A stretch of 58,134 nt of DNA from an uncultured Candidatus Saccharibacteria bacterium (GCA_964366435.1 CAYITJ010000001.1:1-58134), one strand, 5' to 3'. Counted from the first letter of the stretch, positions 2,851-20,344 are shown. The notes: generated from the sequence alone by a model not told the origin. Program-made: numbers and translations.

Positions 2851-2990
2851 CTTGTGGTATAGTGTCCCTGTTCGAGTAAATGGGCTGTGCTCGGGATAAA
2901 ACTCGGGCTGTACCAGTTGCTTGCACTGGTACGATCCCTCACTCGATAAGAATACATACAAGCAGACTTGTAGTTATTCTTCTCTCGTTC

Positions 2991-3063
2991 GGGCCGTTAG
3001 CTCAGTTGGTAGAGCATCTCATTTGCAATGAGAGGGTCGCAGGTTCGAATCCTGTACGGTCCA
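2991..3063 (+). tRNA. tRNA-Ala (anticodon TGC)
   Basis: It folds as a 73-nt cloverleaf. The anticodon loop is tttgcaa, the G3:U70 Ala identity pair is present, the T-loop is ttcgaat, and no CCA is encoded. Confidence 0.95.
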
Positions 3064-4683
3064 CATTCGTTCACTTTTTGCCTCGAAAGAGGCAATTTGT
3101 GTATATTCTTCCTCACTATTTAGAGGTTCTAATATTCCCAAATCGCCATTTGCGACCCTAGGGTACTTTATTAGAACTTCTACAGGCGTCTCTACTTGGA
3201 AAGTAAGTACGCCCTGGTCCAAGACATGCTCGGTTCCAAGGGAGGCGATAATAGCTCTCCGCTTTTCAAAGCTGCCGTTCTTGAATTCCTTGCTTGCCTT
3301 CTCAGCAAAGGTTAGGAGTCTGTCAGCATCCTCTGTCCAGTCGAACGGGGTAATCACACCACCAGTCAGATAGGGCTTCAAAGCCTCTATTTGCTCCTCG
3401 TAGGACTTTTTCTTTTCGGTGAACATGGATATATCAACACGTCCAAGCATGTGTGCATCGACTAAGTTTCCGAGCATAAGCTGAAGCTCGTCATGTTTTG
3501 TTTGGTGAATGTTTTCGATAGCGGTCTTATCCAACTCCTCTCTATCGAACTCCTTTCGTACTTCCTTCATTGCCCAGGCATGGAACTCTGGTGATATCTG
3601 TATGGATGATAGAAAGTCCTGCATGGATTCTTCCAAACGATCCTCACGGACAGATTTCTGTTCGCAATTCTTGTCTACCTGACCAGTACAACGGTAGTAG
3701 GAGTAATTATGGATGTTTCCATTCTTTTGCTTCTTGGTCTTCTTCTCACAAGTTATACGCGCTCCACATCCACCGCAACGCATTAGTCCCATGTATGCAA
3801 ATTTCTGCTTCAATCGTTTTGGAGCATTCTTCTTGAGTATTTTCTGTATGGTCTGGTATTCATCAAAAGTGATGAGAGGCTTGTGGGTTCCTTTAATCCA
3901 AATCCTCTCCTGTTTACCGTTAGCATCCTTCTTGCTCACGGGATACTGAAACTTCCCGTAAAAGAAGGGATTCTGCAAAATCTTGTACCAGGCTGATTTG
4001 GTCAGCTTAAGCCCGCGAGGATTCTTCTCGGTAGGTCGTGTACGAAGTCCCCATTCTTCCGTAGCAATCTCCAAAACCTGCGGAGCGTTATGTGTTCCGG
4101 TAAGCATGCAGTCAATCATCTTTCGTATGATTGGAGAGCGTACAGGGTCAGGGTAAATAAACTCCTCTCCCTTATTACTGCCGTTGCTATTCAAATATCC
4201 TAGAGGGGCAGAGCCAGGTCGTCTTCCGCTTTCTGCTTTGGTTCGCATTCCTCGCGTGACATCTTTACTGAGGTTGAGACTGAACTGGTTCGACATGCCA
4301 AAGTGCATATATAGAAGGAGCATGTCGCTATCTGGGTAGTAGTCCCCATCGTCAGTCTTCAGGTGTTTTATGACTCCTTGTTGAAGCTTCCAAGTAATCC
4401 AACCACCATCAACAGGATTACGGGCAAGACGGTTAATCTTCCAACAGACGATGCCTTGAACATCACCAGATTCAATATCTCGTTTCATGTCCTCAAAGAA
4501 TGGCCTGCCTGGTATCTTGGCAGACTTCAACTCCTTATATGTCTTGGTGATGCGTAGTCCTTTCCCGATACGCTCAATTTCCTTGAGCTGGTCAGGAATT
4601 GAGTTCACCTGCTTGTCCTTGTCATCCGTAGACTTGCGAGCGTAGGCTACATATTTAATTTTGGATGTGTCTAATACTTGCAT
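3019..4683 (-). CDS. large serine recombinase (integrase)
   Basis: The catalytic region reads YARKSTDD and INRLARN. A recombinase domain (PLGY) and a zinc ribbon (CGGCGARITCEK..YYRC) follow. The last 15 codons are antisense to the tRNA-Ala 3' half. Confidence 0.9.
   Translation of the reverse strand: MQVLDTSKIKYVAYARKSTDDKDKQVNSIPDQLKEIERIGKGLRITKTYKELKSAKIPGRPFFEDMKRDIESGDVQGIVCWKINRLARNPVDGGWITWKLQQGVIKHLKTDDGDYYPDSDMLLLYMHFGMSNQFSLNLSKDVTRGMRTKAESGRRPGSAPLGYLNSNGSNKGEEFIYPDPVRSPIIRKMIDCMLTGTHNAPQVLEIATEEWGLRTRPTEKNPRGLKLTKSAWYKILQNPFFYGKFQYPVSKKDANGKQERIWIKGTHKPLITFDEYQTIQKILKKNAPKRLKQKFAYMGLMRCGGCGARITCEKKTKKQKNGNIHNYSYYRCTGQVDKNCEQKSVREDRLEESMQDFLSSIQISPEFHAWAMKEVRKEFDREELDKTAIENIHQTKHDELQLMLGNLVDAHMLGRVDISMFTEKKKSYEEQIEALKPYLTGGVITPFDWTEDADRLLTFAEKASKEFKNGSFEKRRAIIASLGTEHVLDQGVLTFQVETPVEVLIKYPRVANGDLGILEPLNSEEEYTQIASFEAKSERMWTVQDSNLRPSHCK
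3078..3098 (+). terminator. hairpin with GNRA loop downstream of the tRNA
   Basis: The hairpin ttgcctc-gaaa-gaggcaa is followed by TTT. It lies inside the 3' end of the recombinase ORF on the opposite strand. Confidence 0.4.
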
Positions 4684-4846
4684 AGGGTGATACGAGGTCG
4701 ATGTCAGATTCGAGAATGAGAGATTTAAGTTGGATTATTTCCTGTATGAGTTCCTCACGAGACAGGTTAGGCAGGTTCCCAATGTAGTCTGCTAGCTGTG
4801 CTTCTAGGGCAGTGATTCTATCCATGGGGCTTTGGTTGCTTGCCAA
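4655..4846 (-). CDS. hypothetical small protein upstream of the recombinase (possible accessory or directionality factor, speculative)
   Basis: The 63-aa ORF overlaps the recombinase start by 29 nt and has helical-looking sequence. No motif was recognised. Confidence 0.3.
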   Translation of the reverse strand: MASNQSPMDRITALEAQLADYIGNLPNLSREELIQEIIQLKSLILESDIDLVSPYASIRHIQN

Positions 4847-5006
4847 CCGTAATAGTCAGCTTTCCACGGGAGTACTTTACGAAGGCTACTTTTCCGTCCT
4901 GGAACTCACTCTTGAGCATGAGTTGATTCGCATACCAGAGTGGCTCGAACTTAGAGGGAATGTCAGTGAGCTTTTCACTCGATACCACCAATTTACGACG
5001 AGGCAT
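4818..5006 (-). CDS. hypothetical small protein
   Basis: The 62-aa ORF overlaps the next ORF by 29 nt. No motif was recognised. Confidence 0.25.
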   Translation of the reverse strand: MPRRKLVVSSEKLTDIPSKFEPLWYANQLMLKSEFQDGKVAFVKYSRGKLTITVGKQPKPHG

Positions 5007-5081
5007 ATTGGGAAAGTAATTCCATATATGTCAATCGTATTAGGCGTGCACGACATGTACATAGGTACTGCGGAGAAGTGT

Positions 5082-5572
5082 TTACAGCCAGACTTCCTCT
5101 TCAGGTCTCTTGCGACAATCATGCTCGCACTCGCAGCAAGACGGTTTCTCTCTACGACTAATGTTTAAGGAGAACTGGTTAGCCATACCGAAGTGGAGAT
5201 AGAGCATGAGCATGTCGGACTTAGGTGTGTAAGTACCATCCTCCGTAATGAGTTCCTCTATTACACCTTGCTGGAGTTTCCAAATAATCCACCCTCCATC
5301 TATTGGATTGCGAGCAAGTCTATTGATTTTCCAGACGATAATAGATTTAGCCTCCCCGTCTTCTATTGCTTTCTTCATCTCCTCGAAGCCAGGTCTCTCC
5401 ATTTTCTTTGCGCTGGCTGTATCGGAAAACGCGAGAGTTTCATCAACTTCGTACCCGTGCTTTTAGCGAGGGCTCGAATGATGTGGTTTTGTTCCGTCAT
5501 GCTTGCTTGCATGCCTTTGATGTCATCTTTCGAGACACGAGCGTAGAGTGCTACTTTTGGTTTAATGTTCAT
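5082..5572 (-). pseudogene. serine recombinase remnant (frameshifted and truncated paralog of 3019..4683)
   Basis: Two overlapping ORFs make it up. VALYARVSKDD is a resolvase N-terminus. SIIVWKINRLARNPIDGGWIIWKLQQGVI..LMLYLHFGMANQFSLN is near-collinear with the intact recombinase. The recombinase and zinc-ribbon domains are missing. Confidence 0.8.
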
Positions 5573-5576
5573 GATT

Positions 5577-5747
5577 TTAGGTGGTTAGTTTCTTAATGCG
5601 TTTATGATTCTTCTTACGGTAGACACTCAGGTAGAGGTTGAGGAGAGTTCGTGCTTTCCGTTCCAAGTCTTCTTGGGATAGGTCTTTACCAAACTCCCAT
5701 TTGTAGATGTCATGGAATTTAGCAAGACTCCTTTCACTGACAGCCAT
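5577..5747 (-). CDS. hypothetical 56-aa protein (below the ORF-track cutoff)
   Basis: Hand translation gives MAVSERSLAKFHDIYKWEFGKDLSQEDLERKARTLLNLYLSVYRKKNHKRIKKLTT. Its ATG overlaps the stop of the PrimPol gene (TAATG), suggesting coupling. Confidence 0.4.
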   Translation of the reverse strand: MAVSERSLAKFHDIYKWEFGKDLSQEDLERKARTLLNLYLSVYRKKNHKRIKKLTT

Positions 5748-7567
5748 TAGTAAGGTGGCTCAGTGTCGTCTTCAGTGAGTGAGGCAGGTTCGAGGTGGTA
5801 CTTGTTCTTCTTTCCCTCCTTCGTAATCGTTAAGGTTCCTTCTTTCACCATGTCCGAAAGTGCCTGTACGATATTGCGCGTTCCTATCTCCGCTTCGTCC
5901 TGGACGGCTTTAATAATCTCCTCCTTGGTGGAGTCGTCTTGTGAGAGAAAGGTGGTGATGAATGGCTTTGCTTCAGCCTTCTTCACGACGTACTCCTCAA
6001 TCGGCGCGTAGCGAAGTTCGATAAGACCCTTCTCAACATCCAAGTCTTGAGTGAGAACCATTTTGAACTTCGGCTGGCTTGGTCCTCGTCGGGACTTCAC
6101 ATGCTCGATTTCAATGTTCTGTACTGCGTGGGTGTTGTCTTTCTTCTCAACGGTGATGTGGGAATCAAGACGACCAGAGTAGGCAGAGGAACCGCGAAGG
6201 CTCTGTGCTCCTCCAGGAGCACCCATGGCACTCTTTCTGTGGTGATGGATGAAGAGCACTGTCGTCCCAGCAGCTACGAGTTTCTGCATGCCTTCGAGGA
6301 CTTTCTGTGCTCCTTCGGCAGAGTTCTCATCCTGGCTGTGAATTGCCGCGAACGGGTCAATCATGACAAGTCCTATCTCCTGCTCGCGAATAGTCTTGAG
6401 AAGAAGGTCGATATCCTTCTCGTTGTCGAGCTTGAATCCGTTGAGACAATAGAAGTAGATAGGGAGTTCAGCAGAATAGCCGAGTAGCTCCAAGCGGCGG
6501 CGTTGTTCCCATGCGCCCTGCTCCTCATCTACGATGAGTACTTTCCCTTGCTTCGTTCGGAAGTATCCGAGGAAGGATTCTCCCGTTGCTACTGACTTTG
6601 CAAGGTGGAGCATGAACCAGCTCTTTCCACTCCCAGGATGACCACTCAAAGCCGTAATGCCGTGTTCTGGTACGAGTCCATGAACAAGGAACTCTGGTCG
6701 TTCGGACTCAGGCAGATTCATGATTGCTGACATGGCTAGAAGGACACGAGGGGAGGAAGGTGTATCACCAACCTCCTTATCAAAATAGACAGTCCCTTCA
6801 TCCCCTTGGGCGTGTTGCTTCTGGGCGATTCCGCGAAAGATAGACATCACTTCATTCTCGGGAAGCGGCGGCTGGTTAGCAGACTCGTTCCAAGCATGAA
6901 GGAGAGGTAGGGCAACATCTTTCCAGTCTTTTCCTGGAAGGTGATGTAGGAGCTTTCCTGCGAGCTTCACTGCCGTATCGTGTCGCGTACCTTTGGTAGC
7001 TCCATCCAAGACTGCTTTCCAGTCGGTAGCTTCAAGGTCGTTCTTCTTACGATCATCTTCAATTTTGACGAGCCACTCTGGCATGGGAGCCAGTTCGGTT
7101 TCCAGTTCGAGAGGAGTAATCCACTCATAAGCTTTGCCTGTCGTGGGATGAATAGAAGGAGGTACTACGACGTAGCCTCCGTCTGCTTTCATGTCTCCAT
7201 GGATTCCAGAAGGAATGAGGCTTCCTGACTTAACGAAGTCCGTGTCCTTCGGGAAGTCGAAGAAATAGTGCCAGCCTCCGCTACCGGTACGGCTAACGGC
7301 TGTCGGCGGTATTTCAAAGCGGGTAGGGTCTTCGTCGTTCTCCAAGTCGAGAACGGCAAGTCCGTGGACGTATCCCGTGACCATTCCCAGTCCTGTGATT
7401 CGGTCTCCGTATGTGTTGAACCACTCCGTCATTTCCTCGGGCGTTGGGGCTTTGCCTTCCTGATACTCCTTCCAGGAAGGGATTACAGGAACCTTCCCGT
7501 TGAGAGGGATGACGGTTCGGCAGTCATCGAGGTAGCCGAGAGCTGCTTTAAGTAGCTCAGACTGCAT
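5747..7567 (-). CDS. bifunctional primase-polymerase (PrimPol) N-domain fused to a RecA/RepA-like P-loop ATPase (replication protein)
   Basis: PrimPol motifs are VIPLNGKVP, LAVLDLEN and RTGSGGWHYFF. The C-terminal part has Walker A GHPGSGKS and Walker B VLIVDEE. Confidence 0.85.
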   Translation of the reverse strand: MQSELLKAALGYLDDCRTVIPLNGKVPVIPSWKEYQEGKAPTPEEMTEWFNTYGDRITGLGMVTGYVHGLAVLDLENDEDPTRFEIPPTAVSRTGSGGWHYFFDFPKDTDFVKSGSLIPSGIHGDMKADGGYVVVPPSIHPTTGKAYEWITPLELETELAPMPEWLVKIEDDRKKNDLEATDWKAVLDGATKGTRHDTAVKLAGKLLHHLPGKDWKDVALPLLHAWNESANQPPLPENEVMSIFRGIAQKQHAQGDEGTVYFDKEVGDTPSSPRVLLAMSAIMNLPESERPEFLVHGLVPEHGITALSGHPGSGKSWFMLHLAKSVATGESFLGYFRTKQGKVLIVDEEQGAWEQRRRLELLGYSAELPIYFYCLNGFKLDNEKDIDLLLKTIREQEIGLVMIDPFAAIHSQDENSAEGAQKVLEGMQKLVAAGTTVLFIHHHRKSAMGAPGGAQSLRGSSAYSGRLDSHITVEKKDNTHAVQNIEIEHVKSRRGPSQPKFKMVLTQDLDVEKGLIELRYAPIEEYVVKKAEAKPFITTFLSQDDSTKEEIIKAVQDEAEIGTRNIVQALSDMVKEGTLTITKEGKKNKYHLEPASLTEDDTEPPY

Positions 7568-7796
7568 ATGCGGGAAGGTTTAGTATCTGGTCGGTCTCTT
7601 CGCTTATGCAGCCTCTAGCTTCAAAAGCCTGGCACTCCCTCATCCAAGCTGTGTACTTGGTCGGGTCGCGATAAAGTTCGTCTAGTTGTCTGGCAATGTA
7701 TGGTTCGTAGACCACGGTGTCGTTGCAAATATCATTCATACTTCGTTGGTTAATGAGTATGAGGAGAGAATGCAAAAACCGCTTCGGAGCGGTCAA
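7557..7796 (-). CDS. hypothetical small protein
   Basis: The 79-aa ORF overlaps the PrimPol start by 11 nt. An internal Met at residue 20 is an alternative start. Confidence 0.4.
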   Translation of the reverse strand: MTAPKRFLHSLLILINQRSMNDICNDTVVYEPYIARQLDELYRDPTKYTAWMRECQAFEARGCISEETDQILNLPAYAV

Positions 7797-7903
7797 AATA
7801 GCGATTATTTACAGAAAAATATCTGACGATTAAGCCAGAGAATGGCGGGACATTATGAGAGAGTGAGCTTAGAACAACTGTACGCGGTACAGAAAACGCT
7901 ACA

Positions 7904-8692
7904 TCATCCTTCTCGTACAGTGAGTAGTACTTTTCCGTCTTTCAGCGATAGGCTGATTCGTGCCTTCGATTCTGCTAGATATCGTTGTATATTTCCGACG
8001 ACATCACGGACTATATCTGCTGACTCTGCGAGTTTTTCAACTCGCGCGTCACGGCTGCTTATTAAGTCAGTCCTGTATGCGAAGTCCGCGAGGGCACGTC
8101 CATAGTTTCCCTCCTTGTCAGGATTTACGTCTCCTTTAACGAAGTGTTCACGGTCTTTCCAAAGTAGAGCGAAGATTTTGGCTGGACGCTCTTCGTCAAA
8201 TCGACGTGGCTTCAGTCCGAGAATAGAAATGGTGTTTGAGTCAAAGCTGAGCTTTTGACGACTCACAAACTGCGAAGACTGCTCAGGGTTATTTTTAGTG
8301 CAACTGACTTCACGAAGCTTCTTAAGCTTTTCGAGGTCAAGAACCTCAACAGGAAAAGATTTAAGGAAATCGAATCGTTCATTGGTCTCCAGATTGTGCA
8401 GATATCCCTGAGTTGCCTGAATAGAGTAGTTGGTCCCGTGTTTCTTCTCGTACTCCTGAAAGGTAGGGAAATGGGCGATTCCTTCCTCTTCCATGAAAGC
8501 TTTGAGGCTTTCTAAATTCAGTTCACTGTCGGAGGTATAGTCCTCCTTCTCCTCCCATGTCCTGACAAGAAACCAGGTTGAACTGGTCTGGATAGTAGGA
8601 TCGTCTATGTCCTCCTTCCTGTTTTGAATATCACGAAGATACCGACAGATGACAGGAGTGATTTTGAAAGGTGTTTTTCGTGTTTGTCCCAT
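7904..8692 (-). CDS. hypothetical protein
   Basis: This 262-aa ORF has coding-like composition. A terminator lies upstream and a promoter-like AT-rich region lies at 8693-8730. No motif was recognised. Confidence 0.6.
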   Translation of the reverse strand: MGQTRKTPFKITPVICRYLRDIQNRKEDIDDPTIQTSSTWFLVRTWEEKEDYTSDSELNLESLKAFMEEEGIAHFPTFQEYEKKHGTNYSIQATQGYLHNLETNERFDFLKSFPVEVLDLEKLKKLREVSCTKNNPEQSSQFVSRQKLSFDSNTISILGLKPRRFDEERPAKIFALLWKDREHFVKGDVNPDKEGNYGRALADFAYRTDLISSRDARVEKLAESADIVRDVVGNIQRYLAESKARISLSLKDGKVLLTVREG

Positions 8693-8728
8693 GCAATCGT
8701 ATACCTATAGTAATGCACGTTTGCACAG

Positions 8729-8752
8729 GAAAAACACCCTTCGTGAGGGTGT
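8729..8752 (-). terminator. intrinsic terminator for the 8820..9326 gene
   Basis: The minus strand reads acaccct-cacga-agggtgt followed by TTTT. Confidence 0.6.
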
Positions 8753-8819
8753 CTATCCGTGGGGGTAATAAGAAACCATATCCATACCCCTAATCGTGTC
8801 TTAGAGAGGAACGTAGGGA

Positions 8820-9326
8820 CTACTGGGAGGCTTCTACGTCCGTTTTCTTGTATACCGTTTCCCCGTCGATGCTTATTGCATAGACCGTGAGCTTATCGTC
8901 CCCGACGTACTGAAAGAGGACTGACCACTCACTACGAATCATTGCTCCGAATCCGTTCTGAGAATCAACGTAGGAATCTACCTTGAAGACATCGTCTTTC
9001 CCTCGGACTATCGTGGCGTGTGAGGACGAAGGGAACTTTGCTGTCGAAGGAGACTTGAGAGCTTTCAAGATGACTCCCTGGGCATCTACAAATACTTCTG
9101 TATCTGAATGCTGTTCCGGCTGGGCAACTACAGGGGGAGGAACGACGTTGTCATTCTTGGGAGTTGTACTAATTGCTTGCCAGGCAACTAGGACGAAAAT
9201 TATCAGGACAATGATTGCCGTAATGCCTTCTCCTTTCGTTATCTGCTTTTTCACCTCTGGAACATCGTCTTTGGGTGTATTCATATCGTATCGAGCGATT
9301 TGGATAATTCCAGGTGGGTAGCACAA
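8820..9326 (-). CDS. membrane-anchored hypothetical protein (likely true start at 9284, MNTPKDD)
   Basis: It has one N-terminal TM helix (ITAIIVLIIFVLVAWQAI) and then a soluble domain. A repeat motif at 9288-9302 sits just upstream of the internal Met. Confidence 0.6.
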   Translation of the reverse strand: MCYPPGIIQIARYDMNTPKDDVPEVKKQITKGEGITAIIVLIIFVLVAWQAISTTPKNDNVVPPPVVAQPEQHSDTEVFVDAQGVILKALKSPSTAKFPSSSHATIVRGKDDVFKVDSYVDSQNGFGAMIRSEWSVLFQYVGDDKLTVYAISIDGETVYKKTDVEASQ

Positions 9327-9575
9327 AACCCGCCACCAGGAGAGACCGAAGTCTCCTATATGAGTTTCCCCATATAACGCTCGATACGCCCTGATGACGG
9401 GTTTTCTGGTATCGAGCGATTTGCAGCCATGCCAGAGCCGAAGCTGCTGGTTTAGGCCGACTGTTATTCAGTTGTCCTGAGATTATATAACATACTCCGG
9501 AGCAAGTCCTCGTCCTAGGTGCTTGCATTTCTATGAGGTCGTAATATCATATGTTCATAGAAATTATCAAAACAT

Positions 9576-10316
9576 ATGACTCCTACCCCAAACACAGAAG
9601 AGAAGGGCAAGAAAACCCTTCCTCCATACCTCAGTCTTGCGAAGCTACAGAAGCTAATTGAAGTAATTTCGCGTACGAACTTCAAGGTGGTAAATGCCAC
9701 TGTCCTTAAGAGTGATTTCGGAGCGACAGATGCTTCAATTGCTGTTGGTACGCTACGATTCCTTAACCTCATAAACGACCAAGGAGTTCCTACGGAGAAC
9801 ATAAAGAAATTCCATTTGACTGGAGGTGAACGTGCCGCTGCCATTCAGCCAATAGTCAAAGAGGCTTATTCTGAACTGTTTGCAGCTACGGTTGATGGAA
9901 AGCCTGAAGAATTGGCTCAAGACCGACTAGAAAACCTTTTCGTTACGAACTACAACGTCGTTCCCCGCATCGCCACGCCTGCTTCCCGTGCCTTTCTCTT
10001 TCTATGTGGCGAGGCAGGTCTGAAAGAAAAGCAGGTGCGAGCTCCGCGTGTCGTAAATCCTGACGGACAGAAACGCACCCCGAAGAAAGCACCACCGGCA
10101 GCTAAATCTGGACAGGAAGAGCCTAATCACACTCAGTACAGTGGTACATCAACAACAGTCCCGTTTGCGAGTGGCTCCATAAAACTTACGATCCCTCTTG
10201 ATGTGCTCACAAACCTTGAATTGCTTGATGAGTACAAGAAGGTCATCGGAGCTCTTACTGCATTCGGGGAACAGTATCTAGCAACAAAAGTAAAAGATGA
10301 GCCAGCAGGAGAGTAG
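9576..10316 (+). CDS. hypothetical protein with a wHTH-like N-domain (DUF5343-like, from memory)
   Basis: It is the first gene of the plus-strand operon. It carries PPYLSLAKLQKLIEVI..LRFLNLINDQGVPTE followed by a Lys/Pro-rich linker. Confidence 0.6.
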   Translation: MTPTPNTEEKGKKTLPPYLSLAKLQKLIEVISRTNFKVVNATVLKSDFGATDASIAVGTLRFLNLINDQGVPTENIKKFHLTGGERAAAIQPIVKEAYSELFAATVDGKPEELAQDRLENLFVTNYNVVPRIATPASRAFLFLCGEAGLKEKQVRAPRVVNPDGQKRTPKKAPPAAKSGQEEPNHTQYSGTSTTVPFASGSIKLTIPLDVLTNLELLDEYKKVIGALTAFGEQYLATKVKDEPAGE

Positions 10317-11253: not shown

Positions 11254-11262
11254 TATTCATAT

Positions 11263-11877: not shown

Positions 11878-11880
11878 CTT

Positions 11881-12612: not shown

Positions 12613-12616
12613 CAGT

Positions 12617-13003
12617 ATGAAAAACCTTAAGCTCACAGTAAGAATTAACAAGCCGATTGCAAAAGTCTTTGAATTCACTACCAATCCATCAAATACTGCG
12701 AAGTGGATTGATTCTGTCGAAGGAGAGAAGGCTGAATCTTTCCCTCCAGAAATCGGAACGATATATAAAAACTGGGACGCTACTGGAAAGATAAATGAGT
12801 ACAGGGTCACTCAATACGAACCATCGAGAGTATTCCAGCTCGACGCTACACATCAGGATTACAAAGTCCGCTACACCTACACACCAATTTCCGAGAACGA
12901 GACAGAGCTTGAATACTACGAATGGAGTGAGTCTGACCAGCTCCATGCGCCTTTCATGCAGGAGATTTTGGATAAGTTGAAAGAAGTAATGGAGTCTGAG
13001 TAA
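12617..13003 (+). CDS. SRPBCC-superfamily (AHSA1/START-like) ligand-binding protein
   Basis: LKLTVRINKPIAKVFEFTTNPSNTAKWI is typical of the SRPBCC N-terminus. The start was moved to the ATG at 12617, after the EEP stop. Confidence 0.6.
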   Translation: MKNLKLTVRINKPIAKVFEFTTNPSNTAKWIDSVEGEKAESFPPEIGTIYKNWDATGKINEYRVTQYEPSRVFQLDATHQDYKVRYTYTPISENETELEYYEWSESDQLHAPFMQEILDKLKEVMESE

Positions 13004-13004
13004 T

Positions 13005-13307
13005 ATGCTTCTTAACTGGGATATTTACGAAATAAGGTGCGATTGCAAAACATTACATGGCATTAAGCTACGAGGACGTATTCGTAAGTTCGCAATGGAT
13101 AACGACATTACTTGTATTATCGAGAATGCTTCAGATGAGGAGAATGTTGTGCGCTTTGCGCTAATTGCTGATTCAGACTCAGGGCCAGTATCGAGTTTTG
13201 TTAAGAGCATTCTTCCTGAAGCTGTTATTACAGAGTCTCTAAAGAGCATACCTAATCCAGTTCTATCAAAGCTGAAGGTCAATGATTCGGCCAGGTACGA
13301 GATATGA
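13005..13307 (+). CDS. hypothetical protein, weakly acylphosphatase-like
   Basis: It is 100 aa. The pattern LHGIKLRGRIRKFAMDNDITCIIEN..VRFAL loosely follows the ACYP fold. It lies 1 nt after the upstream stop. Confidence 0.4.
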   Translation: MLLNWDIYEIRCDCKTLHGIKLRGRIRKFAMDNDITCIIENASDEENVVRFALIADSDSGPVSSFVKSILPEAVITESLKSIPNPVLSKLKVNDSARYEI

Positions 13308-13942
13308 CTACGAATGAGCTAGCCAAGATCGTTTGGGACTATATGCTCATGAACCAAGAGCTTGAGAAAGCCGATGCAATACTCGTTCTTGGAAGCAGTG
13401 ATTTGCGAAAGGCTGAATATGCTGCTCAGCTTTATCACGAAGGATGGGCATCACTACTCATCTTCTCTGGCGGAGAAGGAAGAACAACAGCAGGTCTTTG
13501 GGGAATGAGTGAAGCAGAAAAATTCGCCTCGATTGCTATAGAGAAAGGCGTACCACCCGAAGCAATTCTGTTAGAGAAGAAATCTACGAACACTGGCGAG
13601 AACATCCGCTTCACAAAGGAGCTTCTCGAAGAGCAGGGAATACATCCAAAGAAGATAATCGTTGTACAGAAGCCCTACATGGAACGTCGTACCTACGCGA
13701 CCTTTATGAAGCAGTGGCCCGGTATGGATTTCATCGTTACCTCTCCGAAAATATCGTTTGAAGACTATCCGCAAGAAGGGAGGTCTATGGAACATATCAT
13801 CAACATGATGGTTGGCGATCTTCAGCGAATTAAAGAATACCCAGCTCTTGGTTTCCAGATAGAGCAAGAGATTCCTGGAAGCGTGTGGGATGCATATGAA
13901 CAGCTAGTATTGCAAGGCTTCACAGAGCAGCTTATTAAGTAG
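13304..13942 (+). CDS. DUF218/YdcF-family protein
   Basis: It carries ADAILVLGSSDLRKAEYAAQLYHEGWASLLIFSGGEG and VVQKPYMERR. Its start overlaps the upstream stop (ATGA). Confidence 0.7.
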   Translation: MTTNELAKIVWDYMLMNQELEKADAILVLGSSDLRKAEYAAQLYHEGWASLLIFSGGEGRTTAGLWGMSEAEKFASIAIEKGVPPEAILLEKKSTNTGENIRFTKELLEEQGIHPKKIIVVQKPYMERRTYATFMKQWPGMDFIVTSPKISFEDYPQEGRSMEHIINMMVGDLQRIKEYPALGFQIEQEIPGSVWDAYEQLVLQGFTEQLIK

Positions 13943-13946
13943 TCAT

Positions 13947-14705
13947 ATGGATTCAAGGAAACTTCTCCCCATATGTAATAGCCTTCTTGAGGCATACAAA
14001 ACAGGAAAGCTTGGACAAACTGTAATGCCTGAGGATTCAAATCCAGGATTTAAAGATACCGAAATAGAAGAACGCCTCTCGTACTTCACGTTTCCAATGG
14101 CTCTCAATTACCAAAGAGATAGCTATAAACTTTGGGAGGCAGCACTCAAGACCTTTCAAGATTCAGAGACTAACTTCGTGTTTGACGTAAAAGAAGTATC
14201 CTCACGTTCCGAAGAGCAAGTCAGACTGGCTTTAATGAAATACAAGCTTGCTCTACAGCCAAACAAGCACGTAAGCACGTGGCGTACCATTGCTAAGACC
14301 ATACACGAAAACTGGGGTTCGTTTGAGAATCTTATAAAGGCTACTGATAGAGATTTCCTAACCCTTAAGCAACTCTTACAGGTTGATTACAAGAAGGGGT
14401 TTCCATACCTCTCAGGTCCAAAGATATTTAACTATTGGTCTTTCATTATTAGTACCTACGGAAGTATCAAGCTTAAAAACAGAGACCAGATAGATATTGC
14501 TCCAGATACCCACATCACTCAGTGCTCTGTGCGAATTGCCGTCATAACACAGGAGGAGGCAGAGAGGCTATCAAAAGAGCAGATATCAACTCGATGGAGA
14601 GAATTACTTGTAGACTCAGGTATTGACCCAATAGATATGCATTCACCACTTTGGTTTTGGAGCAGAAACGGATTCCTCTACGAACTTCCACGAGGTCCTG
14701 TTTAA
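13947..14705 (+). CDS. hypothetical protein (possible HhH-type DNA-binding or base-excision fold, low confidence)
   Basis: It is the 252-aa last gene of the operon. The motif GFPYLSGPKIFNYW is reminiscent of HhH-GPD hairpins, with no firm assignment. Confidence 0.55.
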   Translation: MDSRKLLPICNSLLEAYKTGKLGQTVMPEDSNPGFKDTEIEERLSYFTFPMALNYQRDSYKLWEAALKTFQDSETNFVFDVKEVSSRSEEQVRLALMKYKLALQPNKHVSTWRTIAKTIHENWGSFENLIKATDRDFLTLKQLLQVDYKKGFPYLSGPKIFNYWSFIISTYGSIKLKNRDQIDIAPDTHITQCSVRIAVITQEEAERLSKEQISTRWRELLVDSGIDPIDMHSPLWFWSRNGFLYELPRGPV

Positions 14706-14722
14706 GATTAATAAAGTAAAGA

Positions 14723-14750
14723 GGTTCTAATCTGTTATCAAGAAATGCCC
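14723..14750 (+). repeat. diverged copy of the GGTTCTAAT..CAAGAA(A)TG motif
   Basis: ggttctaatctgttatcaagaaatgccc compares with ggttctaatatcgtgcaagaatgaccac at 14833-14860. It lies 18 nt after the operon stop codon. Confidence 0.4.
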
Positions 14751-14835
14751 AAAAGGGACGTAGAGTGAGTCAGCATTAGTCCCAAGAGTCTACGCACCGT
14801 AAGAAATGTATAGGTTTTACTTGGTGGAAATAGGT

Positions 14836-14860
14836 TCTAATATCGTGCAAGAATGACCAC
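14836..14860 (+). repeat. left half (X) of the interrupted insertion site
   Basis: tctaatatcgtgcaagaatgaccac is 24/25 identical to 20260-20284. Confidence 0.75.
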
Positions 14861-14864
14861 TTGG

Positions 14865-14894
14865 AAAATCTCTTGTGAAAACAAGGGATTTTTT
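14865..14894. terminator. bidirectional GNRA-loop hairpin at the left end of the insertion
   Basis: The hairpin aaaatctcttgt-gaaa-acaagggatttt has flanking A and T tracts. Confidence 0.5.
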
Positions 14895-14898
14895 CGTT

Positions 14899-14945
14899 CA
14901 CCGTACGAAAGGTTCGAACCCTGACTCGTGCTCTACCAACTTGTC
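14899..14945 (-). pseudogene. tRNA-Ala-derived fragment lacking the anticodon arm
   Basis: The minus strand reads agttggtagagca, 13/13 identical to the tRNA-Ala D-region, joined directly to gagtcagggttcgaacctttcgtacggt. That second part resembles the variable loop, T-arm and acceptor of tRNA-Ala at 2991-3063. Confidence 0.5.
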
Positions 14946-14946
14946 G

Positions 14947-15273
14947 CTAATCTACGTCTAGGCAGTTGTCTCCGCAGAGGATCTCGAACAGGTGGTTTTC
15001 GAGATCGCACACGGCAGCCTCAGTGTCCCGCAGGAGTTCGCGAATTGCGCGTCCTGAGAAGAGGAGATCGAGATGGATATCGCGGTGATCCTCGGGTGAC
15101 ACCAGGTCCAGTAGATTGCGCGGTTGGCGCATTTTCATGGGCAGATGGTTGGGTTGATAGGTCGGACGCTCGACCAGACGTCCAACCGTATGTTCGACTA
15201 GAATAGGGATTAGCACACGGCTGCTTTTGCTCCGAATTGGGGCGCTATCGCAACGATCAACTAAGTCGTGCAT
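14947..15273 (-). CDS. hypothetical protein (uncertain, since GC-rich DNA gives spurious ORFs)
   Basis: This 108-aa ORF is divergent from the KAP NTPase gene. No motif was seen. The opposite-strand ORF 14928..15206 is Arg-rich and less protein-like. Confidence 0.3.
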   Translation of the reverse strand: MHDLVDRCDSAPIRSKSSRVLIPILVEHTVGRLVERPTYQPNHLPMKMRQPRNLLDLVSPEDHRDIHLDLLFSGRAIRELLRDTEAAVCDLENHLFEILCGDNCLDVD

Positions 15274-15282
15274 AATCTAACT

Positions 15283-17004
15283 ATGGGAATCGACGCGTTT
15301 AAATCCGAGATCGACCGCTTTCTCGCATCCTCTGATGCGGAGGTGTTGGTAATTAGCGGAAAGTGGGGTGTCGGTAAGACGTTTGCTTGGAACAAGTTCC
15401 TCCGCGAAGCGCGGGACCGACTCAAAGGAATTGCGCTTGAGCGATACGCTTACGTTTCGCTTTTTGGCCTGGGCGACCTAGGCGAGGTCCGCCAGGCGGT
15501 GTTCGAGAACACAGTCGGCAGGGCAAAGGCGGGCGAGGTCGCGGATCTCACGAGCCTTGAAAGTGGGATCAAGACAGCGACGGGAGGCTGGCGAAAGGCA
15601 GCGGGCCTCCTAAGGATGGCCAGCCCTCTCGCTGACTATGCGGCCGCCATCGACAAGATCGGCTTCTTTAGTGTGCGCAAACAGGTTGTCTGCATTGACG
15701 ACCTTGAGCGGAAGAGCGGCTCGCTGGAGATGCGAGACATCCTCGGGCTTGTTTCGTTCTTGAAGGAGCAGCGAGCCTGCAAGGTTGTCGTGCTCCTGAA
15801 CGATGAACAGCTGGGGGCTGACGACGCAGAGTTTCGCATTCAGCTTGAGAAGGTAGCGGATACCACAATCCGCTACCAACCGACGCCGGCCGAAGCGGTG
15901 GAGATTGGCGTCGACAGGTCAAAGCCTCATCATGAAGTGATCGTTCAGGCATGTTCAGCGTTTGGAATTGTGAACATACGGACGATCAAGAGGCTTGAGC
16001 GGCTTTCAGCCCGGCTCAGTGAGATACTTGCCGGCTACGATGTGCGCGTGATCCGGCAAGCGGTACACACTGCCTCCTTGTTTGGATACACGAAGGTGCA
16101 GCCGGACCAGGCTCCAACCATAGAATTCCTAAAGACCTATGGTCCCTACGATGGGCTTCTTGCTCGCGACAATCAGCCACTTTCTCATCCCGAATGGCGA
16201 GAGATGCTCCGACAGTACGACTTCGGATCGATCGACGAGTTCGATGCAGTTTTACTTGAAGGCGTCGAAGCAGGGCACTTTGATCCGGCTAAGCTCAAGC
16301 GTGCAGCCGATATCGCCAGCAGGCGTCTACAACACGTCGATAATGAACACGCCTTTAGCGCTGCGTGGGAGCTGTACCACAACTCCTTTGGTGACAATCA
16401 AGCTGAGGTCACAGGCGCACTTGTCGCGGCTCTGCGCGCTGCTCCTTCGGTGGTAACCCCCACCAACCTTTCCGGAACGATCACACTGCTCAAGGAGCTA
16501 AACTGGGAAGGAAACATAGGCCAGCTCATCTCGGAATACATTGACGGGCGCGACGACGGTCGCGAATTCTGGGACTTGAATGAAAGTTCCTTCGGCGGTG
16601 AGGTGCGAGACTCTGACGTGCGCAATGCGTTTGAGGCGAAACTGGCGACATTTGAAGACGGTCGTGATCCAGAGGAAGTGCTGAAGCGAATTGGTGAGGA
16701 GCGCGGGTGGGGGCGAGACGATGTTCGTTTCCTGTCTCTCCAGTCACCAGCGACTTTGCGCGAGATATTCAAACGGCTTTCGGGAACCGACTTTCACCGC
16801 GCGCTTCGCGGAGGTCTCATGTTCCGGAACATCCAGAACGCCGATGCCGAGATGCAACTGGTGACGTCGAATGTCGAGGCGGCGCTGAGGGAAATCGGCC
16901 AAGAGAGTCCGATCAATCTCCGTCGCGTGCGTCAGAAGGGGATACAAGTAGACGATCCGCCTCAGCCGCCGTCCAGTGCAGTTGGCGACCAGCAGGAAGC
17001 TTGA
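15283..17004 (+). CDS. KAP-family P-loop NTPase (no obvious TM insert)
   Basis: Walker A is VISGKWGVGKTFAWNKFL and Walker B is VVCIDDLERKSG..LGLVSFLKE, the characteristic KAP pattern. The start is set at the ATG at 15283; a GTG at 15268 is possible. Confidence 0.8.
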   Translation: MGIDAFKSEIDRFLASSDAEVLVISGKWGVGKTFAWNKFLREARDRLKGIALERYAYVSLFGLGDLGEVRQAVFENTVGRAKAGEVADLTSLESGIKTATGGWRKAAGLLRMASPLADYAAAIDKIGFFSVRKQVVCIDDLERKSGSLEMRDILGLVSFLKEQRACKVVVLLNDEQLGADDAEFRIQLEKVADTTIRYQPTPAEAVEIGVDRSKPHHEVIVQACSAFGIVNIRTIKRLERLSARLSEILAGYDVRVIRQAVHTASLFGYTKVQPDQAPTIEFLKTYGPYDGLLARDNQPLSHPEWREMLRQYDFGSIDEFDAVLLEGVEAGHFDPAKLKRAADIASRRLQHVDNEHAFSAAWELYHNSFGDNQAEVTGALVAALRAAPSVVTPTNLSGTITLLKELNWEGNIGQLISEYIDGRDDGREFWDLNESSFGGEVRDSDVRNAFEAKLATFEDGRDPEEVLKRIGEERGWGRDDVRFLSLQSPATLREIFKRLSGTDFHRALRGGLMFRNIQNADAEMQLVTSNVEAALREIGQESPINLRRVRQKGIQVDDPPQPPSSAVGDQQEA

Positions 17005-17042
17005 TGTCATTCGAGGACAGATAGGCGATTTCAGATTTACGC

Positions 17043-18233
17043 ATGTGGTTGACCCATCGAAGCAAAAGGTGCGCTGAACTCGATGATTGGGTTTTTCGCA
17101 GATTGTTGACCTTCTATCCGGAGGAGGAACTTCTCAGTCGTCCTGTGCTGGCAAAGTCACTTACGGATGGTGAGATTACGAAGGCGGATCTCCAGAAGGA
17201 GGCCAGCGTTCACTTCATCCCGTGGCAAATGTTTCTGCTGTCGAAGGACAAGCTCAAGGCCCAGTTGAGAAACATTGAAAGGGTGCGGCTGGACAAGATC
17301 CAGGTCGCCGAACTCTCAAGCCGCGCAGGTGGAGCCGGGCCGACGCCCTACCGGCTCATTGACCGCTACATTCGCACTCAGACTTTTCTAACGAGCACCG
17401 AAAGATACGATCCAAACCGGTTCAGCGGTTCGCTGAAAGGGCTGTCGGTCGAGCGATCAATCGGGCGGATCGAGGCGCACTTTGCAATAAATCGTGCCGA
17501 ACTTTGGGAAGCCTCTTCGAAGGAGAAGGCGCTGGAATATCTCATAGAACGGCTGGGGGACGGTCAGGTAAACGTGGCGCTCGGCACCTCGGAGGCGCGG
17601 CTGGTTCCCTCGTCGAAGAACCTTCGGTCGCTCTACAGGAATGTGAGCGGGTTCTGCCTGAAAGACGCCAGGGTGCCGTTCCTGTTTGTGAACATGAACA
17701 TGGCTGACGAAGAGGAGCCGGTTGGTCGCCGTCTCTATACGCTGACGCTCCTCCTCGTATTGGTTGGGCTCGGCGTCTTCTCCGTCACGCGCGACTGGAG
17801 GCCGGGACGGACCCCGCACCGAGCAAAGGACACGTACCTTCCTCATGCGCACAAGATCGTCTCAGAGTTCTTCCTTCCTAGCCCAGTCATAGCGGCCCAT
17901 CGTGGCCAGCAAGTTACGTCCGAGACCGTCCAAGAGGTCGCCACCCGATACAAGCTAACTCCAACCGCCGTGATCTATCGTTTCTGGAGGGAGAAGATCA
18001 TCACGGCGGCGGAAAGGGAGCTGCTGACGCAGCCTCCGGTGGCCATCAAGCGTCGGGCTCGGTCGCCCCGGATCGACAATGCAGTGCGCAAGCTCAACGG
18101 CCGGCTGGTCACTACTGCTGCCCAGAAAGCCTATGCTAGCGGCGCAATCACCGCGAACCAGGCACAGTACGTGTTGTTCGGAAGAATTAGCCGGAAGACG
18201 TGGCGCAAGTACAAGGCGCAATTGGGTCTATGA
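17043..18233 (+). CDS. ImmA/IrrE (M78)-like protein with a degenerate metal site (predicted pseudo-peptidase)
   Basis: FLFVNMN..GRRLYTLTLLLVLVGLG aligns to the usual RxRFTLAHELGHxxLH but without H/E/H. HAHKIVSEFFLPSP aligns to E.EAN.FA..fLmP. VATRYKLTPTAVIYRF aligns to the C-terminal helix of the family. Confidence 0.6.
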   Translation: MWLTHRSKRCAELDDWVFRRLLTFYPEEELLSRPVLAKSLTDGEITKADLQKEASVHFIPWQMFLLSKDKLKAQLRNIERVRLDKIQVAELSSRAGGAGPTPYRLIDRYIRTQTFLTSTERYDPNRFSGSLKGLSVERSIGRIEAHFAINRAELWEASSKEKALEYLIERLGDGQVNVALGTSEARLVPSSKNLRSLYRNVSGFCLKDARVPFLFVNMNMADEEEPVGRRLYTLTLLLVLVGLGVFSVTRDWRPGRTPHRAKDTYLPHAHKIVSEFFLPSPVIAAHRGQQVTSETVQEVATRYKLTPTAVIYRFWREKIITAAERELLTQPPVAIKRRARSPRIDNAVRKLNGRLVTTAAQKAYASGAITANQAQYVLFGRISRKTWRKYKAQLGL

Positions 18234-18676
18234 TTCGCATCCTGGACAACAATGCCCTCGATGCCCTGTACAAGAGCGCTCGCCGCTTGCGGCAGGAGCA
18301 CTGTTGCTATGTCCCTCCGGAGATTGTCGAGGAATTCACTGATGCTGACCGCGAAGAGAGTTGGCTGAGATCGCAGCCGTTGGTCAATCCCAGGATCGAT
18401 GAAGCGGATTTCCTTGCTCGCTACGCAATTCATATCAACCGATACAACGGCGTCTCATTCTACAATCAGAAGGGCTTTGGAGACGTTGCCATTCTGGCAA
18501 CGCTCGACATTCTTGTTGGAAGGCTTCCGTCTACTCGGGCACTCTCGCAGGAGCTTTTCCCGGAGGATCGAATTTTCTTGGTGAGTGACGATGGTAAGCT
18601 TCGGAAGGCGACTGCGAAGAACTTCGGAACCGATGTGACCGTTGAGACCGTCGAGGAGTTTCTATCGAGGTGCTAG
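18230..18676 (+). CDS. PIN-like nuclease-fold protein (DUF4411-like)
   Basis: Its ATG overlaps the upstream TGA (ATGA). Motifs are MIRILDNNALDAL, FGDVAILATL and FLVSDDGKLRKA, a PIN-like acidic-residue pattern. DUF4411 typically pairs with ImmA/IrrE genes. Confidence 0.6.
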   Translation: MIRILDNNALDALYKSARRLRQEHCCYVPPEIVEEFTDADREESWLRSQPLVNPRIDEADFLARYAIHINRYNGVSFYNQKGFGDVAILATLDILVGRLPSTRALSQELFPEDRIFLVSDDGKLRKATAKNFGTDVTVETVEEFLSRC

Positions 18677-18781
18677 CGGTAAGGCCGATGGGGGACGTAG
18701 ATGACTTTAGGGACGTAACGAGCCTCCTGACCGCATCTCTTGTCTGCGCTGAAGTTCGAACCTGGGCCCGAGCTGGTCCAC

Positions 18782-18823
18782 AAAATTAAAACCCCGATGC
18801 GCAAGCATTGGGGTTTTGATAAT
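18782..18823 (+). repeat. right half (W) of the interrupted insertion site, including a terminator hairpin at 18788-18817
   Basis: aaaattaaaaccccgatgcgcaagcattggggttttgataat is 38/42 identical to 20285-20326. It forms a 13-bp stem with a GCAA loop. Two stem differences between the copies are compensatory. Confidence 0.75.
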
Positions 18824-18832
18824 TTTGTAGGG

Positions 18833-18848
18833 CCGTACAGGATTCGAA
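18833..18848 (-). repeat. inverted copy of the tRNA-Ala(UGC) T-loop/acceptor segment
   Basis: ccgtacaggattcgaa is the exact reverse complement of 3043-3058 (ttcgaatcctgtacgg). Confidence 0.7.
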
Positions 18849-18973
18849 AGACGGAGGGGCGCGCTGAGAATCTCTTGAGCGAAGCAATTAGAGATTCCAA
18901 GTGCTCCTGGGGTGAAGACACGCGTAGTGTGTGGCCGAGTCCGGCCTGACGCACTTAACGAGTCTTCGACTTA

Positions 18974-20254
18974 GTGACGGGAGGCGAAAGCGTCTTCGCG
19001 TATCCTGTACGGTTCAACCCAAATAGGATACTTGCGTCTGGTGTGATGGAGTATAATCTTTCTATGAACATAGAAGACGCTGGAGGCAAGGGTCCTGAGA
19101 AGAAGGAACTTAGCGAGAATGAGAAAGAGTCCTTAATCAGAGGTACTCATTCATTCGATCAGTTGTATGCAGCTATAGATAAGATTGGCGCTTTTCAGGG
19201 AAGCCAAGAAACATTTGATGCGTCGCAACTCAGAGATAAGGTCGATCGTGCCCGAAGTGGCGCTATAGATATTACCTACATTACCCGTGCCCATGGGTTG
19301 CGGGAGACTGTGGCGCGCCTGCTTCAGTCCGCGACTTCAGATGAACAGGTAGTTACAGAAGAAGCTCCTGCGCTATCAAATCCAAGCGAGGAAGTGTCGG
19401 TGCCGACTGAAGCAGCATTAGCAGAGAGTCCTGAGTTGGAGGAAGCCCCCTTAGGTGGCTCAGCTATTGAAAGCCTGCCGCAGCAGGAAAAGCTTTCTGT
19501 CATTGATTTCACAGCCGAACAAATAGAGGATGCGAGGGAAGAGATGGAAGCAGAACTGCTCGAAAGGAAGAAAGTCGAGATAATTTCTAGGGCGGCCGAG
19601 GATGCTTCAAATGAACGTGTCAAGCAAATGGTTGTAAAGATAAATCGCAGCCTAAATGGCCGGGCTGAGGGTGCGAACGTTTGGGAAGGCGTTCGTGCTC
19701 AATTAGATCGGAGAGCTCAACAGGATTTGTCTTCACTTTTGCAGACCGTGCGTACTGAGGCTGAACCGAATTCCATCTTATCTCAAGTTGCTGCAGCGAT
19801 TGACAAGGATTATTCGACATCTCGAGGGGGTGTCGTGGACAACACCATTGCAGGGAGCCTTCTTTCCGAATATATTCAGGAACGCGGTACTGAACTTACG
19901 GGAGAGGAATTAGGAGAAGTTGAAGATGCTCTCCACCTGATTGGCCTATCTGCTCAACAGAAATTCTTTCAGTTCCAAAACGCGGAGCAGCTGAGGATTG
20001 TTGCACAAGCTCAGGAAGACTTAATTAGGTGTAACGATGAGTTTGATCCAGCGCGATCTGGGTTTTTTGAGTTGCGAAATGCTATGGAAAGTGCACGAGC
20101 TTCAATTCGGCTTGACTTGAACACTAAGCCAAACTATCAATATTCTCATCCAGAGTATTCAGTGAGAGATGGACACATCTTACGTGTTCTATCCAGCCTC
20201 CATACGATAGAAGCTCTGAAATTCCTCAAGGAACATGACATTGAAATTGAGTAA
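18974..20254 (+). CDS. hypothetical acidic protein (start uncertain; ATGs at 19046 and 19064 are alternatives)
   Basis: This long ORF of 426 aa has a Glu-rich central region and no recognised motif. The annotated 5' end overlaps the att-like repeat, so a later start is likelier. Confidence 0.6.
   Translation: MTGGESVFAYPVRFNPNRILASGVMEYNLSMNIEDAGGKGPEKKELSENEKESLIRGTHSFDQLYAAIDKIGAFQGSQETFDASQLRDKVDRARSGAIDITYITRAHGLRETVARLLQSATSDEQVVTEEAPALSNPSEEVSVPTEAALAESPELEEAPLGGSAIESLPQQEKLSVIDFTAEQIEDAREEMEAELLERKKVEIISRAAEDASNERVKQMVVKINRSLNGRAEGANVWEGVRAQLDRRAQQDLSSLLQTVRTEAEPNSILSQVAAAIDKDYSTSRGGVVDNTIAGSLLSEYIQERGTELTGEELGEVEDALHLIGLSAQQKFFQFQNAEQLRIVAQAQEDLIRCNDEFDPARSGFFELRNAMESARASIRLDLNTKPNYQYSHPEYSVRDGHILRVLSSLHTIEALKFLKEHDIEIE
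19002..19016 (+). repeat. direct repeat of the tRNA-Ala(UGC) 3' end (putative right att core of the island)
   Basis: atcctgtacggttca compares with atcctgtacggtcca at 3049-3063, a 14/15 match. Confidence 0.7.
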
Positions 20255-20259
20255 TCGGC

Positions 20260-20326: not shown

Positions 20327-20344
20327 CGGGTATACTAATCCGTA

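Follow-up and report, generated by a model that had tools for sequence, protein, structure and literature searches.

The region downstream of tRNA-Ala(UGC) in the window, a 58,134-nt stretch of DNA analysed at its full length (contig 1 of genome G000, which comprises 745 kb in 32 contigs), is probably an accretion stack of integrative elements that built up at the extreme 3′ end of this tRNA gene in a Parcubacteria genome and that includes a mobile unit, named E. The genus relatives of the host are Parcubacteria/Paceibacterota, a lineage of the candidate phyla radiation (CPR), and the source is groundwater. An earlier note on the same DNA had read the locus as one mosaic island of about 16 kb ending at 19016. 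Its view that the DNA at the tRNA-Ala 3′ end was acquired horizontally holds, with the open reading frames (ORFs) of the window absent downstream of the locus in 16 relatives, and so does its likening of the island to a plasmid or satellite rather than a prophage, no phage-structural or conjugation families being matched in Pfam and PHROGs. More precisely, no capsid, portal, terminase or tail family is matched in Pfam (29 ORFs) or PHROGs (10 ORFs), with remote homologues still possible, and no relaxase, coupling-protein or type IV secretion family is found among the Pfam matches of window ORFs. The outline of the island has to be redrawn: the supposed single element consists of two stacked units, E and a second cassette, E3, and acquired DNA goes on beyond 19016, with a remnant, E4, and accessory genes. 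The features on which the argument relies are the following.

2991-3064 (+): tRNA-Ala(UGC), found by ARAGORN and by the Rfam tRNA model (72.9 bits)
3065-14860: element E, near-intact, 11.8 kb, made of a backbone, a cargo operon and a far-end arm
3065-3180 (+): P′ arm, the recombinase-proximal end of E, conserved after the tRNA in G067, L051, L063 and L064
3019-4683 (−): large serine recombinase (LSR), 554 aa, with the Pfam domains Resolvase, Recombinase and Zn_ribbon_recom
5085-5572 (−): stand-alone paralogue of the catalytic domain with a Cys-rich tail, traced by tblastn with the intact genes of L063, L064 and L071
5747-7567 (−): PrimPol-PriCT_1-AAA_25 replication protein (primase-polymerase and helicase; Pfam)
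7557-7796, 7904-8692 and 8820-9326 (−): three small backbone ORFs, kept in related elements
9341-9458 (−): LOOT RNA (Rfam RF03000), cmscan 73.2 bits against a gathering score of 46.4
9576-14705 (+): variable cargo operon of eight genes (Pfam, PADLOC, NCBIfam)
cargo genes 1-4 (+): DUF5343/PDC-M34A, an unknown protein, a CYTH-like protein and an EEP nuclease/phosphatase
cargo genes 5-8 (+): SRPBCC, an unknown protein, DUF218 and an unknown protein
14722-14860 (+): far end of E, with the P arm at 14832-14860 ending in CCAC (attR junction)
18782-18829 (+): native tRNA terminator T2′, homologous to the terminator directly after tRNA-Ala in element-free relatives
18830-19018 (+): native foldback module of ~190 nt, with left arm, structured core and right arm

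The boundaries of E are supported directly by comparison with related elements. On the tRNA side, mapping against G067, L063, L064 and L071 places the attL junction at CCAC (3061-3064), with the tRNA end ...GGTCCAC as B arm, and homology among the elements begins at GTCCAC; the P′ arm starts with ATTCGTTCAC, after which comes a GCCTC-GAAA-GAGGC hairpin. At the opposite end, the window, G067, L065 and L071 remain homologous as far as CCAC (14857-14860) and no further. G067, in which tRNA and ddl are convergent (an arrangement shared with G007 and G016), has the element, yet no tRNA repeat is found over 33 kb; here the far end borders on a host terminator and a small conserved gene beside ddl. 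In L065, a homologue of the P′ arm (TTCAC..GGCACGAAAGT) directly adjoins the far end, which gives an attP-type junction; a GGCACGAAAGT-type hairpin is found in the recombinase-proximal arm of G067 and G047 too. Judged by its sequence, the L065 junction is that expected of a circle or a tandem array, and a similar junction lies between two adjacent elements in L064. Collectively, the tRNA-side, far-side and L065/L064 junctions delimit E as 3065-14860. Identity between the two junctions, attL and attR, is limited to CCAC in the window, G067, L071 and L065 and to GTCCAC in G137 and G141.

The arms also display a regular geometry. Motifs AGGTTCTAAT lie at 3124 (+) and 3170 (−) in the P′ region and at 14722 and 14832 at the far end; the motif has three occurrences in the 745-kb genome, all inside E. 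In the tRNA half-site AGGTTCGAAT...GGTCCAC, 24 nt separate the motif from the junction, whereas 29 nt separate them in the E arm AGGTTCTAAT...GACCAC, i.e. the motif of the element stands 5 nt farther out than that of the tRNA. The same distances recur in an independent system in G200, with 24 nt in tRNA-Asn and 29 nt in the element arm, both of which end in GCGGAGC. For the LI integrase, the distance from the centre to the motif for the zinc-ribbon domain is 5 bp shorter in attB than in attP (Rutherford et al., PMC3783163). By analogy, the +5-nt shift fits this published attP/attB rule, and the motif would then be bound by the zinc-ribbon domain.

Comparison with relatives shows how far the acquired DNA extends. 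The order uvrC-ddl-tRNA-Ala is conserved in 16 genus relatives, and the window ORFs from 3019 to 25845 have no homologue downstream of tRNA-Ala in any of them; the island genes, as the synteny check proposed in the earlier note reveals, are not conserved core genes. The genes that do follow the tRNA in these relatives match the window at 26.4-29 kb and 32-52 kb, and in G014 the homologue of 28428-28955 comes directly after the tRNA. Synteny resumes only at ~26.4 kb; therefore the variable stretch runs from 3065 to ~26.4 kb and is wider than formerly believed. Occupied and empty sites can be aligned base for base. In the occupied sites of G137 and G141, the tRNA (...GGTCCAC) is followed by a 5.8-6.8-kb element with a serine recombinase and LOOT that ends in ...GTCCAC, then by the terminator and the module; in the empty site of G166, the same terminator and module follow the tRNA end (...GGTCCAC) directly. 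The module being intact in both states, module and repeat must predate the insertions, and the uninterrupted locus that was to be compared already contains the 15-nt repeat without any island. Elements located behind the right arm of the module in G150 and G172 further indicate that this arm is a second target. The native layout of the window is thus tRNA-CCAC, T2′, module and T2, with three units inserted. The units other than E, and what follows them, are listed here.

14861-18781 (+): E3, a cassette of 56% GC with no recombinase gene (Pfam, PADLOC)
14864-14897: terminator of E3
14898-14950: inverted tRNA-Ala relic in E3 with the D region kept (alignment)
15268-17004: KAP NTPase of E3 (PADLOC PDC-S49)
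17043-18233 and 18200-18676: other ORFs of E3
18753-18781: arm-like end of E3, 29 nt, AGTTCGAA...GGTCCAC, i.e. closing with the last 7 nt of the tRNA
19019-20284 (+): E4, remnant of an E-type element behind the module (repeat-family analysis)
20285-20326 (+): terminator T2, 42/46 (91%) identical to T2′
to ~26.4 kb (+): accessory genes after T2 (Pfam, synteny)

Elements related to E are spread horizontally among CPR genomes. Serine recombinases occur in 113 of 201 genus genomes. At the same tRNA, L063 carries an element with 99% (LSR) and 98% (PrimPol) aa identity to E, G067 one with 72% and 76%, L071 one with 64% and 76%, and L051 a deletion remnant with 95% nt identity; LSR identity is 68-74% in L064 and L065, and PrimPol identity 72-76% over G067, L064, L065 and L071. 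The host gene ddl next to the elements of L051, L063 and L071 is only 61-64% identical in aa to that of the window (61-69% when G067 is included). The element must therefore have moved between species. The common backbone corresponds to window 3065-9475 and comprises the LSR, two tiny ORFs, the paralogue, the PrimPol-helicase, three small ORFs and LOOT; after it comes a different cargo block in each element, then the common far end. The only cargo gene common to the window and L071 encodes SRPBCC (12569-13003 in the window; 81% aa identity). A scan of genome contigs with the PrimPol protein returned only G067 and G047, and an exact-pattern scan for the attL junction returned one relevant metagenome contig (L051) and none among viral contigs.

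Several side observations concern these relatives. The cargo of L064 (CBFDOA010000002.1, 1-7500) comprises a cation-efflux protein, a P-type ATPase and DsbA/DsbB, that of L065 (273-4813) a CD-NTase-like protein and an S74 peptidase, and that of L071 (1869-7863) an AAA_15/21 ATPase, an S51 peptidase, a LigT-like protein and a GDSL lipase. In G047 (L045, G047:C1, 5493-7501), a related recombinase abuts the 3′ end of transfer-messenger RNA (tmRNA) within an element of ~19 kb whose PrimPol is 69% identical; in G200 (L048, G200:C2, 5043-11661), a 37%-identical recombinase abuts the 3′ end of tRNA-Asn within an element of 6.5 kb. In both, the recombinase ORF terminates inside the RNA gene.

The gene content of the island had been described as an intact LSR, a PrimPol-helicase, an eight-gene operon and a high-GC cassette, all of which are borne out by Pfam and GC content. 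In the LSR, the catalytic domain (PF00239, E = 1e-16, residues 12-154) carries the motif YARKST near the N-terminus and is followed by PF07508 (3e-10) and PF13408 (5e-9); phmmer against the PDB returns the SPbeta integrase (1e-14) and the A118 integrase (9e-6). The LSR ORF crosses the attL junction, with its last 14 codons antisense to the tRNA. The computed C-terminus consists, in the integrated state, of 13 residues antisense to the tRNA and, in the excised state, of 26 other residues encoded by the element. A second recombinase had been called decayed. A recombinase remnant is indeed present, and Pfam detects a resolvase-domain remnant at 5082-5402 (−), but the gene belongs to a conserved family and is interrupted by a single frameshift near 5444-5462, which splits the tblastn matches over two reading frames. 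In relatives, the paralogue has 153-166 aa (L063 5250-5741, L064 11990-12490, L071 12008-12469); it keeps the serine motif without the DNA-binding domains and might act as a regulator of the recombinase or determine the direction of the reaction. A directionality factor, which serine integrases need for excision, was not identified; the small ORFs at 4.7-5.1 kb and the paralogue itself are candidates only.

Backbone ORF 8820-9326 matches phrog_13160, and LOOT lies 15 nt upstream of it, the first ORF of the backbone operon. The LOOT match is full-length (model positions 1-121) and is the best-conserved stretch of the element, with 90-94% nt identity in L064 and L071; LOOT is also present in G067, L051 and L063. 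It occurs in 58 of 150 genus genomes versus none of 14 control genomes, and at least 29 of 82 LOOT matches, counted manually, lie within 10 kb of a serine-recombinase match. Because LOOT overlaps it, a 119-aa ORF at 9169-9528 is probably spurious. The cargo operon may be defence-related.

From these data a mechanism can be proposed. The LSR would recombine the site of the element (P arm 14832-14860, CCAC, P′ arm from 3065 onward) with the tRNA end ...GGTCCAC, the P arm acting as a mimic of the tRNA T-loop and tRNA end with its motif shifted by +5 nt. Crossover would take place within CCAC and would therefore leave the tRNA body intact without making a long direct repeat. Once excised, E could replicate by its own PrimPol-helicase; it would carry an exchangeable cargo operon, and LOOT would head the backbone operon. 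E3, devoid of a recombinase gene of its own, would be an older element or one mobilised in trans, and the right arm of the module, a copy of the tRNA 3′ end, would have served as second landing site, now taken by the remnant E4. The LSR and PrimPol genes are intact, as are the arms, and both genes are near-identical to their counterparts in L063, a different host.

Several observations weigh against this interpretation. No mirrored copy of the motif stands at the corresponding distance on the P′ side, so that the site is asymmetric, and the frameshift in the small paralogue may impair E. The L065 junction could reflect a tandem array rather than a circle, its contig having no terminal overlap; indeed, no terminal overlap indicative of circularity is found in L063, L065, L066, L072 or L075. 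When Logan contigs from four groundwater or aquifer runs were compared with window 2500-20500, no contig bridged 3064 to 14861 or 14860 to 3065, the contigs being short and the depth ~4. Other joints in these data, from 3064 to 14832 (X2, 28 nt shorter side) and from 3055 to 18834, look like cross-matches of the T arm or palindromes and were not used; the joint from 3065 to 18823 (X5, depth 131) stems from a different, abundant organism in which tRNA, terminator and inverted copy are found, and is only a hint that this layout is native. Finally, the P arm of E together with T2′ is 91% identical to P arm 2 of E4 together with T2, which a later insertion of E3 would explain equally well.

This last point raises a serious competitor, though it is held less likely than accretion: E3 may have inserted late into the right junction of E, at a site of ~74 bp whose ‘empty’ copy would be 20253-20326. 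Aligned with this copy, 14829-14860 and 18778-18823 show P arm and terminator each ~91% identical, and such equal divergence of the two halves suggests that they were once contiguous; P arm 2 itself (20253-20284) matches the P arm of E at 29 of 32 positions. A 569-nt contig in X2, which is probably the source study, stops exactly at 14860 and the next begins at 14916; this stop agrees with a late insertion, and the break may reflect a branch of the assembly graph at the right junction of E or just low depth. Insertion into an attR-type target is, however, a non-canonical reaction for a serine integrase, accretion at the tRNA accounts for the same junctions, and the similarity would likewise be expected if E and E4 were sisters and T2′ and T2 tandem native terminators as in G166. 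As far as the sequence can tell, accretion with E3 as the older unit and later insertion of E3 would give the same product. Two further findings concern the content of these units: the accessory ORF of E4 (19064-20254) has a weak match in only 1 of 100 genus genomes, and the alternative origin of the inverted relics, as remains of convergent tRNA-Val/tRNA-Pro, was set aside on an alignment that favours tRNA-Ala, not decisively.

Preference is given here to accretion at the tRNA end, onto a native foldback module that deserves its own description. The 15-mer at the tRNA 3′ end (3049-3063) recurs at 19002-19016 on the same strand with 14/15 matches, and on the minus strand at 18829-18843 with two mismatches, the inverted copy extending to 19/20 over 18830-18848. 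Three matches in the window against 0.06 expected in shuffled sequence confirm that the repeat, as first reported, is real and unlikely to be due to chance. Its interpretation as an att duplication marking the island border was mistaken: the downstream copy belongs to the right arm of the module (19002-19018), the inverted copy being the left arm (18830-18848), and the same module is found in island-free genomes. The 15-mer is present in 102 of 201 genus genomes scanned. In at least 20 genus genomes it recurs on the same strand 100-300 nt after tRNA-Ala(UGC) with no island between, the 188-nt spacing recurring in five of them, and homologous modules after tRNA-Ala were confirmed by sequence comparison in at least 12 genomes. 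The conserved order is tRNA (...GGTCCAC), terminator, left arm GG(G/A)CCGTACAGGATTCGAA, a GC-rich core of 100-200 nt and right arm (A/G)TCCTGTACGGTCCAC; in the window, terminator and module of this kind span 18782-19018, and L071 has the order of the window, with a perfect 16-nt copy of the repeat downstream of its related element.

The module is under structural constraint. Its fold has a z-score of −6.6, and in a nine-genome alignment 14 of 33 pairs change on both sides, with one helix of 15 pairs containing 11 covarying ones; paired cells amount to 91.8%, as against 78% after shuffling and 24-39% with the pairing partners slid. The closing helix of the module corresponds to the acceptor and T stems of tRNA-Ala, with a G:U pair at position 3 in about half of the copies and A-U in the others. 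No Rfam family matches the module. An identification as tmRNA was rejected, since contig 5 of G000 encodes a normal tmRNA, none is detected by ARAGORN in the window and the module has no T-loop hairpin. Some copies (the L099-L115 set) show an additional hairpin between the acceptor-like and T-like strands.

Conceivably, although this is doubtful, the foldback module is itself a small non-autonomous cassette integrated in trans, in which case the repeat would be a true att product of a much smaller unit. Each unit opens with its own terminator and closes with a copy of the tRNA end, units stand in tandem in G107, G198 and G174, and their length varies between 120 and 240 nt around the conserved core. 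The covariation fits an expressed RNA gene equally well, however, and mobility of the unit is putative. It is tempting to combine these threads, tentatively, into an undescribed linked system, in which a CPR family of serine integrases would read the T-loop and acceptor end of tRNA, tmRNA and similar genes as host half-site by means of a +5-nt attP mimic, while foldback cassettes would multiply the landing sites; the cassettes would be either mobile mini-cassettes or small RNAs closed by a tRNA-Ala-like G3:U70 helix.

Less credit goes to the proposal that E and E3 form a composite unit (3065-18781) that uses the CCAC of the tRNA and that at 18778-18781, with the KAP cassette as extra cargo. 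Both units lie between the tRNA and its native terminator, the 29-nt arm of E3 closes as the tRNA does, and serine integrases are able to excise tandem arrays via outer sites; yet E3 is found in no other member of the family, with the KAP protein not found in 200 genus genomes, the conserved arm of E is intact at 14832-14860, the GC content changes sharply (56% in the 15-19 kb block versus 42-52% elsewhere in the island), and the arm sequence of E3 is unlike that of E, so that recognition by the recombinase of E may fail. The initial proposal of one 16-kb element, produced by crossover in a 15-nt core duplicated at 3049-3063 and 19002-19016, is very improbable: the improbability of a chance 14/15 repeat, the perfect copy in L071 and the repeat copies that lie 6-7 kb apart around an element in G137 and G141 speak for it, but the repeat stands ~190 nt after the tRNA in element-free genomes within a conserved module, G137 and G141 retain terminator and module beyond the ...GTCCAC end of their element, G067 has the element without the repeat, the L065 and L064 junctions put the element end at CCAC, and no tyrosine recombinase or integrase is found among the Pfam matches of island ORFs.

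Among known systems, E would be, mechanistically, a serine-integrase integrative element, and in architecture it resembles the tycheposons. The first class includes the LSR elements of Listeria (A118/LI), SPbeta (SprA), the phiC31 and Bxb1 prophages, SCCmec (CcrAB) and Tn5397 (TndX). As in these, the recombinase of E has the order catalytic domain, recombinase domain and zinc ribbon with coiled coil, and its attL and attR have few bases in common; as with the LI integrase (PMC3783163), the outer motif of the E arm lies 5 bp farther from the centre than that of the host arm. In contrast to them, E targets the last bases of a tRNA gene (tRNA-Asn or tmRNA in relatives), its arm mimics a T-loop, its recombinase ORF spans the junction, and it has a PrimPol-helicase, a paralogue reduced to the catalytic domain and LOOT, no phage or conjugation genes and a CPR host. 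Like the tycheposons of Prochlorococcus, E combines a site-specific integrase, primase/helicase genes and exchangeable cargo, targets tRNA or tmRNA genes and accretes in tandem into islands with partial tRNA copies. In tycheposons and cryptic elements, 910 of 937 use tyrosine recombinases and leave partial-tRNA direct repeats (bioRxiv 10.1101/2020.12.28.424599). E differs from them by its serine recombinase, a junction identity of 4-6 nt and another phylum, and the likeness meant here is one of architecture.

Two other comparisons concern parts of the locus. As in archaeal integrases of the SSV type (SSV1), where attP lies inside the integrase gene, the recombinase ORF of E spans the att site and its C-terminus is changed on integration; the enzyme is a serine and not a tyrosine recombinase, and since the exchange affects just a short tail past the recognisable domains, integration does not inactivate the gene. 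The foldback module, like integron attC sites, is an imperfect inverted repeat that closes a variable core and keeps its pairing over its sequence. Unlike attC, it comes with no integron integrase, its arms copy the tRNA 3′ end, its core has conserved sequence blocks and it adjoins a terminator; it may simply be an RNA gene.

Gene exchange is little known in the tiny genomes of CPR bacteria, where this family appears to be a major vehicle, ferrying variable cargo between species, including candidate defence, metal-resistance and CBASS-like (cyclic-oligonucleotide-based antiphage signalling) genes. The orphan LOOT RNA gains a concrete setting, and the integrases are natural serine enzymes whose target, defined by the tRNA, is predictable and whose attP/attB code can be read. 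Because foldback modules provide such repeats without any island, a direct repeat of a tRNA end is unreliable as an island border in these genomes. In the literature, no description was found of this element family, of targeting of tRNA ends, of foldback modules or of a LOOT function.

A few observations concern the surroundings. In relatives, tRNA-Ala(UGC) is the first gene of a cluster that also contains tRNA-Val(CAC), Pro(CGG), Pro(GGG), Ala(CGC) and Ala(GGC); in G000, a 100%-complete assembly, ARAGORN finds just Ala(UGC) and Ala(GGC) of that cluster, which seems to have been eroded at an insertion hot spot or left unassembled. Between the islands and the conserved genes lies a gene for a 1372-aa surface protein (21727-25845, +) with YDG, MBG, Ig-like and peptidoglycan-binding domains. 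Another type of tRNA-Ala duplication is seen in G085, G151 and G050 (L106, L107, L113) and in G010:C69 (L018), where a segment from the anticodon stem or T arm through the 3′ end is repeated in tandem 50-630 nt apart. Such tandem duplications are the usual scar of long-core integrases, so that several element types use tRNA-Ala.

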